This document shows, piece after piece, positions 15,001 through 21,000 of a stretch of DNA of 64,000 bases; within the stretch, counting starts at the first letter, position 1, and every line of letters starts with the position of its first letter. This DNA is from an uncultured bacterium (GTDB taxonomy: Bacteria > Omnitrophota > Omnitrophia > Omnitrophales > Abzuiibacteriaceae). The position numbers are program-made. The DNA lies in NCBI GenBank assembly GCA_964387845.1, contig CAYLXA010000006.1, positions 32,001 to 96,000 of the forward strand, written 5' to 3'.

Positions 15001-18000
15001 GTTTCAGGATCGCACGATCAGGGCCCCCACAGAAATGTACTGCCTTCAAGGCCGCCTTATAGCACTTATCCGAAAGAAGGAGAGGTTGAGAAGCTGATTT
15101 CCAAAGATGATATACGCCAATGCACGGGCCGGGCCGGGACGCTTATTTTTTGCGATACCAGAGGGCTGCACAAGGGCGGGCATGCCACTAAAAATCCAAG
15201 GATTTTGTTTAATGCAGTTTATTTGACAGAAGGAGCCATTCCTTCCGAGAAAAGAAAAATTAATTACATTCTAAATCAGCCAAATCGCACGCATAATCCT
15301 CTAGCTGATTACGCATTAAGTTGGGCAGAATCTAGTTAGACTTTTTACGTAAATATAGTTCCGCCAAAGCCAAATCAATTTTTGAATCAATATTAACAGA
15401 GCGTTCCACGGGCATGACGTAAGCCAGGCTTTTTTTGCCCCAAAGCGAGTGTTTTTTCATTAAAGTATCCCGCCGGACTGCATATACGGCCCCGTTTAAA
15501 GCAAATACGCGCGGCAAATCCTGACGCCTAATGCCTTCATGCCAGAATTTTGGCAGGAAAGGTTTCAAAGTCCCCTTATGAATTTGCATGGTTTTGCCCG
15601 GATGCGGATCCGAGATTTCGGAAACACTGATAACCGAATCAGCCTTTGAGTCTCTTAAAAGCATGATGGATCGATCGATGTCTTGCGAAGTTCTTAATGG
15701 CGCTGTGGGCTGAAGCAAAACAATGAAGTCATATCGACCTTGCTTTTTTTCCATAAAATTAACGGCATGTTTGAGCACGGAAAGAGAGCTGGCACGGTCT
15801 GTGGCGAGACGCGAGGGGCGAGTAAATGGAGTCACCGCGCCATATTTTCTTGAAACAGAAATAATTTTGGTGTTATCGCTCGAGACAATGCAATCGGTCA
15901 AGTAACGGCTTTTTTTCGCGGCTCTAATACTGTATGCGATAAGGGGAAGCCCAGCCAATGGCTTGATATTTTTCTTCGGAATACCTTTTGATCCGCCTCG
16001 AGCCGGAATAACGCCCAAAACCCTCAGCATATTGAAGGTACCTCGCGCTCTTCCCAATTGTAAATCACGTCTTTTCCGCAATGGCTTGCAAAACGGCCTC
16101 TGTAATAATTTCGGTTCAACAATTCCTCTTCACTTAGGCCGGGATTCTCAATTCCTATCATGCTTTCGTATTCAGCGGATGAAATCTCGGCATGGATTTT
16201 TTTATTCAGATTTTCACGAGAAAGTTTACAGGCGGCAGTAAGTTCTGAAAGCTGTTTCGGATTGATTGAAACCGGGCCGTCCCTCGTTTCTTCCGGCTTG
16301 AGTAAAGTAAAATGGCGTTCAATGACGGAAGCGCCGAGCGATATAGCGATAAAAGAAGCTTTTAGGCCATCTTTGGCGGGTGCGGAATGGTCGCTAAATC
16401 CAACGGATGGCGTAAATTGCAGAAGAAAATTCATTCTCCTTAAATTTAATTTATCCAGCGGTGTCGGGTATCGTGTTACACAATGCAAAAAACTAAATTT
16501 TTTATTTTTTAGAATAGATGCTGTTTTACGGATTTCGTCGTCATAAGTACCGCCCGTGGAAATGATCAACGAATCAAATTGTTCCGCAAGCTCGCGAATC
16601 ATGGGGAAGCTTGCGCAATCGATGCTTGCAACTTTGATAGTCGAAAATCCCAACGATTTTACAAGCGGGATTCGATGGCGCGAAAAAACCGTTGTGAGCG
16701 GAAGGATTTTGGCCTTTTGGCAGGTTTCGAGGAATATGTGGTGATCTTTTTCGGAAAGCTCTAGAGGCTTTAAACGGTTCTTTTCAGCCGCGCAGGGGCG
16801 TTTGATGATTTTCTGAATGCCATTTTCGATTTTTCCTTCTTCAAATTCAGGGCGATAAGTTACGTCATCTGCGAAAATGGTTTGAATTTTGGCGTAGGCG
16901 GCACCGTTTTCTTTGGCTGCCCACACCATCTCTTTTAGAAGGGAAATGCTTCCGTTATGATTTTGACAAAATTCGACAATAATTTCTGTCATTGGATTTA
17001 GTAGGCGAGTTTCTTTTCGCTTTCAAGCTTGATGTCTGCCAAAATATCCGCGATTTTTTTGCCTGCGTTTCCGCGGCCGTAAAGGTAATCACGGGAATAA
17101 ACGCCGTGTTTTAATTGCTTCTGAATAGCGCTTTTGATTTTTGGAGTATCGTTCTGGACTTGAATGACGTTTCGGCCCATTTCGCGTCCTCCTTGGCGGT
17201 CTCCGATTGTGACAGCCGGAATTCCTAAAAACGAACCTTCGCGGATGGCCATGCTGGAATTGCCGACGATGCAAGCTGAATTAATTGCAAGCGAAAGAAA
17301 ATCTTCCGCAGGCAAGTTGCGGATAAAGTGCACATTGGGGATCTTGTTTTGTTCGCGGTAAAGCCTGATACCTTTAGAGATTTGATCAGAGCCGGCGTCG
17401 ACATTAGGCCAAAACCAGAAGGTAGGCATTCTAATCTCAGAAACAGCGTCCAATGTCTTTCTAACTTGGCTTAATCCCGATTGTTCTTGTGTGGTGACGG
17501 GGTGCTGCAGGACAATCAAATAGCTATTTTTCTTTGGTGTAAACATGGCGCCAACGCCCTTACGCATGACTGAATCCAAAGGCCGCGTTTTCCCCCTTGA
17601 AACATCCAACGCTAAATCAATGGACGGACAGCCGGTAAAAAAAACATTTCTTGGGTTTTCGCCCAATCGGATAATTCTCTTTTTTGCAAGCGCGGTCGAA
17701 GCAAAATGATAATTAGAAAGCTTGGTCACGGCATGACGTACTTTTTCATCGATGGAGCCCGTGATTTCACCGCCCTGGACGTGAGCAACGGGAATATTCA
17801 TATAAGAACCTGCGATAGCAGTTGCAATGGTTTCGTACCGATCAGCCACGGTCAAAACAATATCAGGTTTCAGATTGGAAAAAGCAGTAGAGAGTTCTAG
17901 GATGCTCAAGCCCGTTGTCTTGGACATTGTCACCAGGTTTTCCCCTTCCAAGACAGAATAAATTCGTTCGGCCACCCGGAAACCGTCTTTGACGATGACA

Positions 18001-21000
18001 TCAACGACCGATCCGAATTTTTCAAGCAATGCAGAAGCGCCCACGATGAGTTGGAGTTCAAGAGCAGGGTGCGCCTGAACCGCGCGTAAGACAGTCTTGA
18101 TTCTGGCGTAGCTAGCCCGGTTGGTGACGACAATCGCAATTTTTCTTTTTTGCTTCCTTTTTTTCATGATCGTGTTTCTGAAACCGGCGCAGGCTCTCGA
18201 GTTTGATTTAAGTGAAAAGTATTTTTAATCTCAGCAAGTAAAGCTCTGGTAACATCCTTAACATTTTCCCAAGTGACCACATAAGGAACCGCGTAGGGCT
18301 GGCGCCGTGTTCCGGGGTGGCTGCCTTTGAAAAGAGCTGTGATGTATTTTAATAAATTTTCGCGGTTGGGGCGAAAATTTTTTAGAAGCTTTTGAATAAC
18401 GGAGGGCAGGTCTTTGATGTTTTCTAGATAAAAGGCGTTGTCATAATTTTTGTAAAAAGTGTCGCCAAGCACAACCAATGGCTTTTCAAGCAAGATAGCT
18501 TCCATCCCGATTGTATTGGATATGGAAACAATTAAAGAAGCGTTCTTCACTATATCAAAGCTTGGCAGCTGAGTATCTAAAAGTCTCACATTGTAAATGG
18601 AGCGCAGCCGGCGATATTCGGAAAGCGGTCTTCGGCCCAGAAAAATCGGATGGTCCTTAACGTAAAGTCTGTAGCCGGCCGGCAAACTTTTGCTGATATT
18701 TTCGATCACGGCGAGCTGATCGCAATAAAAGGGAGCCAAAATGAGCGTTGAGCGTTCGGGCTGTACTTGGAGCGGGTAAAAAATGTATTTTTCACCGGCA
18801 ACCGGTTTTTCGAAAAGATTGAGCGCTTTTCCCAGGTGGTGGCGGAACACGCGCGAAATTCTTGAGCGCACCAAATCCAAAAATTTCATCCGGCTGATAT
18901 CCAGTGGATCCGTAAAGTTATCCCAGCTGAAAGTAAATAAATTAATCAGTGCTTTAAAGCTGAAGTTGGGAACCTTGCTCCGTGTTTTTAAATAAAGCAG
19001 AGGTTCGTAATGATTGGTGTATTCGTGCAAGAAGGATTCGGCATGCTTTCTTTCATCGGTTGTTAATTCACGCGTCTTCAATTCCCGATAGGCAAGCTCG
19101 ACCGGTTCGCGTGAATCAAGGCAATCGTCATAAATCGAAAGGCGATGATTCAATTTTAAACTTCCCAGGGACCAAACGGGCACGCCTCGCTTTTTACCGA
19201 TTTTATAAATTAAATAGCTTAGCATGCAGCAAACGTCGTCCATGATAATCAAATCCGGCTGCTGCCGCTCAAGCGCCTCCTCCACAAAATGGATGCAAAG
19301 CTCCAGTGCACGCATGGCTTTATCATATGGCAGCTTTGAAATGTAACGGTCTGAAGAAATGTAAAAGGGTAGATTGGGGATGCCCAGTTCTTTTTCTTTT
19401 TGTTCTAAGAAGGAGAGGTCGTAGGGCGCCGACCAGTTTTTGGAGCGCAAATAATCCGTAAAAATACAGATTTCGTTCCAGGTCTTGTCTTGCTCGAGAA
19501 GTCTCTTGGCACTGATTTGTCCGTAAGAAATTCCTGAAAATTTTACAGATGGGATATCTTGACGCAGAAGTACGCTGATCCGCTGAAAGAAAATCTCATA
19601 AATTGATAAAAAGAAAGTAATTTTCATTAAATTGTCTAAAAGACCGCCCTTTAACTGGAAGGAAAGGAGTATAAACACAAAGATAAAACGCGTCAACTTC
19701 TATGATGGCAAACGCTTGCCTTGAAAAGATGCATTGATAATCAAAGGGGGATCGGGTAAAATTCTCTCTTTGAAAGGCAGAAGAAATGTCTCAATTAGAA
19801 GAAAAGCTTAGCTCTACAGACGAACAGAAAAAATCCGGATTACGCCGCGGTTTTAAAGCAGTTATTGAGAGACTTAGCCCCGCGCTTCTTTGGCAATTAC
19901 GGCGCTGGACCTATCTCAAGAATCCCAGAGAATTTTGGGCGCGTGTCGGTCAGGACAAAGGTTATGAGAACCCAGGCCCTGAAGTTACCCGGATTCAGGG
20001 TAAATTTATTGCTGATAAGATCAAGCCTTTAGCTCCGCGGTCTGTGCTCGAGATTGGCTGTGGCTGGGGCCGTATTTTGGGAGTTGTTCGTGAAGAGTTG
20101 GGCGCGGATGTAAAAGTGGTAGGTCTTGATTTTGGGCACCCGCAAATCACAACGGCAAAGAGCCGGCTTGGCAATTCATGCGGATTTGTGGAAGGCAATG
20201 CAGCCAAACTGCCTTTCAAGGACAATAGTTTTGACGTGGTTTATACGATGGGCGTTTTTATGCATATCCCGCCGGAATTTATTGAATCTGCTTATAGCGA
20301 AGCTGTTCGTGTCAGCCGGAAATACATTGTGCATGGCGAAGACTTAAGCGGAGCCTATCATCGTTTTCGCTATGACCACGAAAAAGAATACCGAAGCCGC
20401 GGATTTGGCATTCAAACCTGTGAAGCACCTAAGCTTCTTCACGTAGACCCAAAAAAGATCCCGCAATTTTTAATCGTACAAAAAAAATCTGTTTAGAATT
20501 AAACAGATTTTTTCTTGGCCGCAATTCTTAAAACTTTTTCCAGCCATTCGGATAGAAATTTCTGATCCAAAGAACTCTCAAGATTCAGTTTAGTCGTGGC
20601 AATGTCTTTGCTTGCGGAGGGGTCGACTTTAATGCGCTCGTGCAGCCTTCTGACCAAGGCTTGCGCAAAACAAAACTGTAGAAGCAGCAAAAGATGTTTT
20701 TTTGTTTCTTGATTCCATGTGCATTTAAAATATGAAATGTAAGCACCAAACCAATCGGTGACCCAATCGGCTTCGAATATTTTCTGAACCGGGTTTTTGC
20801 ATGCTATATGGACTAAGTCATATAGAAAAAATTCGTGCTTTCGGACACCCTCGAAGTCCAGTATGAAAATTTCTGAATCCTGAACTCCGCCAAATGATAA
20901 ATTTCCGCCAGAGATAATATCGCCGTGCACTGCAGTTCTTAGATTGGCGGCGTTTATGAATTTTGTTTTAAAGTATGTGCCCGCGATCTTGAGAACGGCT

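Follow-up and report, generated by a model that had tools for sequence, protein, structure and literature searches.

Does an uncultured bacterium of the Omnitrophota (contig CAYLXA010000006.1) encode a complete route to an activated nonulosonic (sialic-type) acid together with the enzyme that attaches it to a polysaccharide, and which sugar would such a route deliver? The question is raised by four same-direction open reading frames (ORFs) on the minus strand at 15332–19696 of a 64,000-nt stretch of this contig, hereafter the window, to which all coordinates refer. We consider it fairly probable that the four genes form one operon, which makes a nonulosonic acid activated with cytidine monophosphate (CMP) and installs it on the repeat unit of an exopolysaccharide assembled by the Wzx/Wzy route. 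What is observed is the set of genes and their coupling, the conservation of fold and motifs, and an association with nonulosonic-acid genes across the transferase family. Systems of this kind are already known; the distinctive features here are the clade of synthases lacking the SAF domain, and an enzyme resembling transferases of 3-deoxy-D-manno-oct-2-ulosonic acid (Kdo) that is paired with a GNE-type NeuC module. The operon reads as follows, in the direction of transcription:

19668..19696, minus strand: promoter-like site upstream of the operon (TTGACG-17-TATACT, consensus match only)
18164..19627, minus strand: KpsS/KpsC-like GT-B glycosyltransferase, 487 amino acids (aa), candidate CMP-nonulosonic acid transferase (PF05159, KpsC/WbbB profile homology)
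16998..18167, minus strand: NeuC, hydrolysing UDP-N-acetylglucosamine (UDP-GlcNAc) 2-epimerase, 389 aa (TIGR03568, PF02350)
16024..16992, minus strand: SAF-less NeuB-family synthase condensing phosphoenolpyruvate (PEP), 322 aa (PF03102 only)
15332..16030, minus strand: NeuA-type CMP-nonulosonic acid synthetase, 232 aa (PF02348)

The initial annotation described neuC, neuB and neuA as a contiguous minus-strand module that makes and CMP-activates a nonulosonic acid, and this description holds after the correction of two gene starts. The NeuA ORF had been delimited as 15332–16081, but its likeliest start is the ATG at 16030, and the resulting 232-aa protein is an exact entry in the public protein collection. 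The KpsS-like ORF had been delimited as 18164–19696 (510 aa); its likeliest start is the ATG at 19627, which gives a 487-aa protein that is likewise an exact public entry and agrees with the NCBI call (P0124). The longest KpsS-like ORF opens with a TTG at 19696, which coincides with the -35 hexamer of the promoter-like site; this site matches the consensus at 10 of 12 positions, and the number of such sites in the region is not above chance. Overlaps of a few nucleotides had been reported for the junctions. They are present between the kpsS-like stop and the neuC start (4 nt, ATGA) and between the neuB stop and an ATG internal to the longest neuA ORF (7 nt, ATGCTGA), but neuC and neuB are separated by a 5-nt spacer. 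No second NeuA, NeuB, NeuC or KpsS-like gene is present in the window. Intrinsic terminators and promoters counted in the region do not exceed chance numbers, and the operon structure therefore rests on gene spacing and synteny.

The KpsS/KpsC-like transferase and its family

A Capsule_synth-like protein had been proposed directly upstream of the module on the same strand, and a search of 18164–19696 against PF05159 (Capsule_synth) confirms it with 29.4 bits against a gathering cut-off of 20. Searched as a single sequence against PDB, the protein retrieves KpsC at E=1.4e-5, with the K-P-H-P and Q-V-E-S-D of KpsC aligned to K-D-H-P and Q-V-Q-P-E of the window protein. A profile of 29 family members reaches KpsC (GT107) at E=2.6e-12 and WbbB (GT99) at E=7.7e-7. 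The AlphaFold2 (AF2) model (pLDDT 92, pTM 0.89) displays a GT-B fold, and the best TM-score in a Foldseek search belongs to KpsC 6mgd (TMt 0.58). UDP-GlcNAc 2-epimerases were ranked first by Foldseek with TM-scores of only 0.24–0.38; this ranking reflects generic GT-B similarity, and we relied on the sequence-profile result instead. K324, H326 and E376 are invariant across the 29 sequences of the family alignment. E291, located within Q287-x-x-x-E291, is Glu in 28 of them and Asp in one, and position 287 is Gln or His. The column of the Y-E motif of Pseudomonas-type members is acidic in 24 of the 29 sequences and is occupied by Asp130 in the window protein. Among characterized enzymes, sialyltransferases and retaining Kdo transferases bind CMP through a common (K/R)-x-H-P motif; in the latter the covalent nucleophile is provided by the Asp of Q-x-x-x-D, and in KpsS1 the Y-E glutamate is the proposed base (PMC12887879).

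In 2015, PF05159 proteins whose genes adjoin nonulosonic-acid modules were put forward as the transferases belonging to them (PMC4487303). KpsS1, according to the account in PMC12887879 of Walklett et al. 2024, is a retaining transferase of the pseudaminic acid (Pse) derivative Pse5Ac7Ac and founded GT118. Acinetobacter baumannii KpsS1 (GT118)/Gtr59 and the window protein are alike in being PF05159-related GT-B proteins beside a nonulosonic-acid module in a Wzx/Wzy locus (PMC4487303; PMC12887879), and members of the window family such as P0157 have Y-E at positions 128–129, near Glu132 of KpsS1, where the window protein has Asp130. Compared by published descriptions, the window differs from KpsS1/Gtr59 in its putative nucleophile, which is Glu rather than Asp, and in its module, which has a GNE-like NeuC-type epimerase in place of PseG and no Pse genes; the donor is therefore probably not Pse. 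KpsC/KpsS (GT107) and WbbB (GT99) share with the window protein the GT-B fold and K-x-H-P, and its Q-x-x-x-E aligns to the Q-V-E-S-D of KpsC. Unlike KpsC and WbbB, the window protein measures about 480 aa and has a different N-terminal half, the similarity being confined to the C-terminal Rossmann half; unlike that of KpsC/KpsS, its locus shows, among the window ORFs scanned, neither the context of an ATP-binding cassette (ABC) capsule system nor Kdo genes. The Tannerella forsythia BFO_1060 family comprises genetically validated transferases of Pse and legionaminic acid (Leg) derivatives, which also occur beside nonulosonic-acid synthesis genes and carry an HP motif (PMC5420450). The window protein matches this family (NF046086) weakly over the HP-motif region (30 bits, E=2.8e-7, cut-off 200), and differs from its T. 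forsythia members, which are TagB-like in their N-terminal part and serve protein O-glycosylation.

The KpsS-like family is represented by 5,287 sequences at 50% identity (E<=1e-30). A metagenome scan with the tight family alignment provided 80 loci, 44 of them with at least 8 kb of flank. A NeuA, NeuB or NeuC homologue is found in 30 of these 44 loci and a NeuB-family gene in 22, and in 14 of all 80 loci one of the three genes directly adjoins the KpsS-like gene. The contexts are Leg-type (NeuC with DegT, PglD and PglF), Pse-type (PglF and DegT without NeuC) or limited to NeuC-NeuB-NeuA. KpsS-like relatives at 31–81% identity adjoin nonulosonic-acid genes, and loci across this range are arranged as follows (identity of the KpsS-like protein):

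L090, 81%: KpsS-NeuC-NeuB-NeuA, the window order
L002, 79%: syntenic; NeuB-NeuA adjoins the KpsS-like gene; no NeuC within 10 kb
L088 (Omnitrophica metagenome-assembled genome, MAG), 68%: KpsS, MBOAT, GDSL, PhyH, NeuC, NeuB, NeuA
L089, 62%: CBS-dehydrogenase, 292-aa ORF, NeuB and NeuA about 6 kb from the KpsS-like gene
L006, 31%: adjoins a canonical set of NeuB with SAF, NeuC and NeuA

In L088 the KpsS-like gene is located four genes upstream of NeuC-NeuB-NeuA. Loci L174 and L175 (50–51% identity) have no nonulosonic-acid genes on their short contigs, so the link to the SAF-less synthase is established only at 62% identity and above. The earlier suggestion that the protein is a candidate transferase thus gains support from the KpsC/WbbB profile homology, the conserved CMP-binding and nucleophile motifs, the family association with nonulosonic-acid genes and literature precedent, and we regard the PF05159-like protein as a credible transferase for the nonulosonic acid of the operon. 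A possible further example of the pairing could be the 'capsule polysaccharide export protein' encoded on plasmid pMaD10 of Marinovum algicola (L171), where it occurs together with a 304-aa 'sialic acid synthase', PseI and a CMP-Kdo-synthetase-like gene (features at 304-1218, 5938-7008 and 10535-11560).

NeuC, NeuA and the SAF-less synthase

The epimerase is assigned to NeuC with 370.6 bits to TIGR03568 (cut-off 235.9) and a full-length match of 240 bits to PF02350. Its best PDB match is the epimerase domain of human GNE (242 bits), as against 192 bits for an A. baumannii 'GDP/UDP-diNAcBac 2-epimerase'. The fetched loci were grouped by the score of their NeuC to the window NeuC: at 227 bits or above (15 loci), none has PglD or PglF within 8 kb and one has DegT, whereas at 191 bits or below (11 loci) six have DegT, PglD or PglF nearby. 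The NeuC thus appears GNE-like rather than LegG-like, which favours a product derived from N-acetylmannosamine (ManNAc), that is, of the N-acetylneuraminic acid (Neu5Ac) type. NeuA matches PF02348 (CTP_transf_3) with 73 bits. Its best NCBIfam match is PseF (TIGR03584) at 171 bits, below the cut-off of 206, and its best PDB matches are all CMP-Neu5Ac synthetases (6ifd, 140 bits; 1eyr, 105 bits).

The 322-aa synthase matches PF03102 with 165 bits and has no match to PF08666, which bears out the earlier remark that it lacks the C-terminal SAF domain. It scores 164.8 bits to TIGR03569 (NeuB) against a cut-off of 399.65, and 145.3 bits to TIGR03586 (PseI) against 340.25. Its homologues form a tight group of SAF-less proteins of about 317 aa, named by pipelines as 'general stress protein', 'SpsE' or 'legionaminate synthase', with a mean column identity of 68% over 20 diverse members. 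The clade keeps E7, K35, Q37, K120, H202, E225 and H227 without exception, at the positions of E25, K53, Q55, K129, H215, E234 and H236 in Neisseria meningitidis NeuB. Asp125 replaces Glu134 of the N. meningitidis enzyme, a change reported for archaeal and eukaryotic synthases (PMC8208679), and the N-terminal part of the barrel carries a conserved basic insertion, I-K-R-P-Y. The C-terminus of the clade is a conserved tail of about 35 residues (E-E-L-L-N-R-D-Y-Y-R-G-R-F-A-S...Y-N-W-E), which aligns to the first strand of the SpsE SAF domain only; this indicates a truncated SAF domain from which the Arg314 region is missing. The AF2 model (pLDDT 95) is a NeuB TIM barrel whose best fold match is the SAF-less NeuB of Leptospira borgpetersenii (6ncs, TMt 0.75), an enzyme only 27% identical to the window synthase. 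With NeuB (1xuu), SpsE (1vli) and PseI (8h2c) the clade has in common the barrel, the metal-binding His residues and those aligned to the active site of N. meningitidis NeuB; it differs from them in the reduction of SAF to the Y-Y-R-G-R-F...Y-N-W-E tail, the exchange of Glu134 for Asp and the extra conserved loop. SAF-less NeuBs have been reported to cluster together and to come from environmental organisms (PMC8208679).

We placed the synthase by curated hidden Markov model (HMM) cut-offs, PDB chains and context-labelled environmental sequences, SpsE being the sole characterized Leg-pathway synthase in the comparison. SpsE is required for Leg synthesis (PMC7439481). A profile of the clade scores 123 bits to Campylobacter jejuni PseI (8h2c), 115 bits to Bacillus subtilis SpsE (1vli) and 113 bits to N. 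meningitidis NeuB (1xuu). A 'plasmid' match (H40/L170) considered as an Escherichia coli K1 NeuB reference was discarded: its ORF of 515 aa scores only 45 bits and is not K1 NeuB. In a neighbour-joining analysis of 130 NeuB-domain sequences, 98 of 100 bootstraps recover the 85 SAF-less ones as a clade. No between-clade distance is below 1.22 and none within the clade is above 1.16, so that the two ranges do not overlap; the nearest outgroup is at a distance of at least 1.45. With this separation, the synthase groups with no synthases from Neu, Leg or Pse contexts. Phylogenetic placement, which the initial annotation had proposed as a check, therefore sets the synthase apart from Neu, Leg and Pse synthases alike, and by its scores it is not an equivalog of NeuB, LegI or PseI.

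Weighing the sugar and its transfer

The pathway that we favour would begin with NeuC converting UDP-GlcNAc to ManNAc. The SAF-less NeuB-family enzyme would then condense ManNAc with PEP to a Neu5Ac-type acid, and NeuA would convert the acid to the CMP-sugar. The family assignment of NeuC and the fold and catalytic residues of the synthase are observed features; from them and from the context we infer the substrates, the sugar identity, the stereochemical outcome and the acceptor. The KpsS/KpsC-like GT-B enzyme may bind the CMP-sugar through K-x-H-P (K324/H326) and transfer it to the lipid-linked repeat unit, probably by a retaining double displacement with Glu291 as nucleophile and Asp130 as base, as suggested by homology with KpsC, WbbB and KpsS1. 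Decoration of the sugar by the methyltransferases, SGNH/AlgX-like acyl-handling enzymes and PhyH-like dioxygenase encoded nearby is conceivable, although speculative. As to its identity, judged from the sequences, a Neu5Ac-type sugar is favoured at a roughly even chance. The sialic acid product originally proposed is consistent with the GNE-like NeuC and with a NeuA nearest to CMP-Neu5Ac synthetases, but finds no backing in the synthase, with scores of 165 against 400 for NeuB and 145 against 340 for PseI.

Several observations weigh against the pathway as formulated. The synthase falls far below the NeuB and PseI equivalog cut-offs and has no SAF domain, and to our knowledge neither its clade, of which we know of no functional study, nor the KpsS-like family has a biochemically characterized member. 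The closest syntenic relative of the locus, L002, has NeuB-NeuA but no NeuC within 10 kb. Of 67 loci of the synthase clade with at least 8 kb of flank, 55 gave no NeuC in a reference-HMM search, and most of the other 12 have it next to an additional NeuB that carries SAF. Arg314, reported to be essential in N. meningitidis NeuB, belongs to the SAF domain (PMC8208679). It has also been argued that retaining Kdo transferases depend mechanistically on the C5 substituent being axial and so may not be easily adapted to sialic acids, in which it is equatorial (PMC12887879); this argument makes the KpsS-like protein of the window a useful test case.

The rarity of NeuC suggests that the usual substrate of the clade may not be ManNAc made by NeuC, and leads to the alternative that the SAF-less NeuB and NeuA are a self-contained cassette for a different, uncharacterized ulosonic acid, with NeuC as an accessory feeder or serving another sugar. 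The product might possibly be of the Kdn type, or a 9-phosphate intermediate formed from a sugar 6-phosphate as with animal NANS. To characterize the clade loci, we used a reference-HMM search of 80 species-representative genomes with a member 47–60% identical to the window synthase, 67 of which have at least 8 kb of flank. The hosts range across Bacteria and Archaea, an argument for a cassette in itself: Anaerolineae, Rhodothermales, Candidate Phyla Radiation (CPR) bacteria, Bacteriovoracaceae, Scalindua, Thaumarchaeota/Nitrosopumilales, Promethearchaeota, Methanomicrobiales, Pelagibacteraceae, Prochlorococcus and Thioglobus. A NeuA-type gene adjoins the synthase in 40 of the 67 loci, which also speaks for a cassette when set beside the 12 with NeuC. 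So does the commonest neighbour, a 564-aa CBS-domain nucleoside diphosphate (NDP)-sugar dehydrogenase, which 58 of the 80 loci have, compared with 4 of 80 controls, along with recurrent D-2-hydroxyacid dehydrogenases (32 loci), HAD phosphatases (17), ManC-like genes (14) and xylose-isomerase-like genes (11). PF04464 Glyphos_transf proteins (31 loci) and an unknown 388-aa protein (21) recur as well. The pair travels as a cassette (e.g. L033:7370-12910, L008:8182-12660) and looks like an uncharacterized ulosonic-acid pathway. The exchange of Glu134 for Asp, shared with archaeal and eukaryotic synthases (PMC8208679), and the I-K-R-P-Y insertion fit this alternative too, as do several CPR loci that pair the SAF-less synthase with a canonical NeuB, one NeuC and two NeuA. 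In these loci (L039, L046, L051 and L067, CPR/Saccharibacteria-type) the SAF-less NeuB is followed by a canonical NeuB of about 369 aa, NeuC and NeuA, and a further NeuA lies upstream; two synthases and two cytidylyltransferases with one epimerase suggest two activated sugars per locus. However, the window, L090 and L088 all have NeuC packed directly against the synthase and agree in this gene order. This window-type order, with NeuC directly upstream of the synthase, is a minority arrangement common to L090, L088, L037 and L040. Neither a HAD phosphatase, a kinase, ManC nor a CBS-dehydrogenase is present in the window, and in the sets examined the NeuCs most similar to the window NeuC flank SAF-less synthases or canonical NeuBs without PglD or PglF nearby. 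We consider the cassette explanation rather unlikely for the window. As a separate observation, the ammonia-oxidising archaea of the set (L026:10946-12910, L029-L033, L038, L058) encode, next to the SAF-less NeuB, the NeuA-type domain fused to a LarA N-terminal domain (lactate racemase-like, PF09861) in a protein of 654 aa.

A legionaminic-type product (5,7-diamino-3,5,7,9-tetradeoxy) comes into view upstream of the window start, on the same contig in the Logan assembly. There (L007:1-9870) the exopolysaccharide locus continues with genes for a PglF-like 4,6-dehydratase, a Wzy-GT4 fusion (843 aa), a PglC-like initiating transferase and a DegT aminotransferase, as well as a further Wzy, a GT4, a further sulfotransferase and a truncated Bac_transf. 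Since they are encoded in this locus, 5–10 kb upstream of where the window begins, the PglF-like enzyme and DegT make a Leg-type sugar possible: they would produce a UDP-bacillosamine derivative, with NeuC acting as LegG, the synthase as LegI and NeuA as LegF. In agreement with this route, JGI names some clade members 'N,N'-diacetyllegionaminate synthase', epimerases of the TIGR03568 type serve both pathways (PDB 5xvs is named a diNAcBac 2-epimerase), and many KpsS-like relatives occur in loci with DegT, PglF, PglD and NeuC together. Yet PglF and DegT flank the PglC-like initiating transferase, which is the typical arrangement for supply of the initiating sugar, and the locus has no PglD-type N-acetyltransferase: the 221-aa ORF beside DegT has no Pfam match, and the sole hexapeptide protein is about 25 kb away. 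The NeuC scores higher to GNE than to the LegG-type enzyme and groups with NeuCs from loci lacking PglD and PglF, and the synthase does not cluster with Leg-context NeuBs, SpsE being no closer to it than PseI or NeuB. We give this route little credence. Still more improbable, to the point of being nearly discounted, is a KpsS/KpsC-type beta-Kdo transferase that builds a glycolipid anchor and is unrelated to the adjoining nonulosonic-acid genes. The PF05159 match and the KpsC profile homology would suit such an enzyme, but the window protein reaches just 23 bits with NF050054, the KpsS equivalog, whose cut-off is 600, the window ORFs scanned include no KpsM/T/E/D-type ABC export genes or CMP-Kdo genes in a locus that uses Wzx/Wzy, the gene overlaps the neuC start codon, and its family is associated with nonulosonic-acid genes.

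Within the favoured pathway, the transfer step admits a bolder proposal, which we regard as improbable: the KpsS-like protein would be a retaining Glu-nucleophile enzyme acting on CMP-beta-Neu5Ac and yielding beta-linked sialic acid in an environmental exopolysaccharide, while the coupled SAF-less NeuB-NeuA pair would represent a widespread ulosonic-acid pathway. We know of no beta-linked sialic acid in natural glycans. The hosts of the coupled pathway would then include Thaumarchaeota, Asgard archaea, CPR bacteria, SAR11 and Prochlorococcus.

The surrounding polysaccharide locus and its meaning

Around the operon, the window carries the genes expected from the initial annotation, namely a sulfotransferase, a DUF3473 deacetylase, a GNAT protein, a FemAB-like protein and four methyltransferases, in addition to a GT4 and GDSL/SGNH proteins. 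Wzx, Wzy, a weak Wzz-like protein, a PhyH-like dioxygenase and a radical-SAM/SPASM protein belong to the same locus, while two-component regulators, a carbamoyltransferase, a hexapeptide acetyltransferase and a resistance-nodulation-division (RND) efflux system are encoded elsewhere in the window. Three features bear on the operon or adjoin it:

9393..12124, minus strand: Wzx flippase and Wzy polymerase, to whose assembly route the sugar would pass (PF01943, PF04932)
14368..15339, plus strand: PhyH-family dioxygenase, convergent with neuA, a possible sugar-modifying enzyme by its context (PF05721)
20499..22184, minus strand: 561-aa methyltransferase fusion (PF08241 in the N-terminal part)

Two further predictions fared less well. 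A GDP-fucose synthase, and with it fucose in the polymer, is weakly founded: GDP-fucose synthase is the best match of a short-chain dehydrogenase/reductase (SDR), at 289 bits against a cut-off of 500, and no Gmd was seen in the window. The likeness to PEP-CTERM-type loci draws on one family above its cut-off, the FemAB-like protein (TIGR03019, 280 against 260), and one just under it, the deacetylase (TIGR03006, 242 against 276). Neither an exosortase nor a PEP-CTERM protein was seen among the scanned window ORFs, nor an exosortase in the gene calls of the 10 kb upstream.

The PhyH-family Fe(II)/2-oxoglutarate dioxygenase recurs in the loci of related KpsS-like genes (L088:5846-6688, L089:18378-19349). 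It is directly beside the nonulosonic-acid genes both in the window and in L088, where it is next to neuC. The protein has no NCBIfam match, and could hydroxylate the sugar or its N-acyl group. Proteins of 561–569 aa with the same methyltransferase domains as the window fusion adjoin the KpsS-like gene in L002:8174-9883 and L089:11465-13150. The C-terminal part of the window fusion, about 300 aa, has no Pfam match even at E<=5; it carries an H-G-D-x-x-x-x-N...D-F-E pattern which, by its sequence, gives the impression of small-molecule kinases. At 129-1106 of the window, within the polysaccharide locus, lies a 325-aa protein consisting solely of a pyruvate-kinase barrel domain (PF00224, 201 bits; TIGR01064, 260 bits, under the cut-off of 306), and a putative link to the PEP supply of the synthase is conceivable. 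Locus L175 of an Omnitrophica MAG has a KpsS-like paralogue (51% identity) that is divergent from the same PglF/Wzy-GT4/Bac_transf block that precedes the window, so a second KpsS-like paralogue may exist further upstream on the window contig.

A literature search for nonulosonic acid in Omnitrophica found nothing. More widely, nonulosonic acids are increasingly found in environmental biofilms, and the enzymes that attach them are poorly known. The operon joins a GNE-like NeuC to two uncharacterized and very widespread protein groups, of which the SAF-less NeuB clade spans from Omnitrophica to ammonia-oxidising archaea and marine picoplankton, the other being the KpsS-like transferases of about 480 aa. 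The proposal of a beta-linked sialic acid, if true, runs against the suggestion made for sialic acids in PMC12887879. With the sugar and the anomeric outcome known, thousands of genes could be annotated, the ability of Kdo-type retaining transferases to use sialic-type donors would be put to the test, and the surface display of many uncultured lineages would become clearer.

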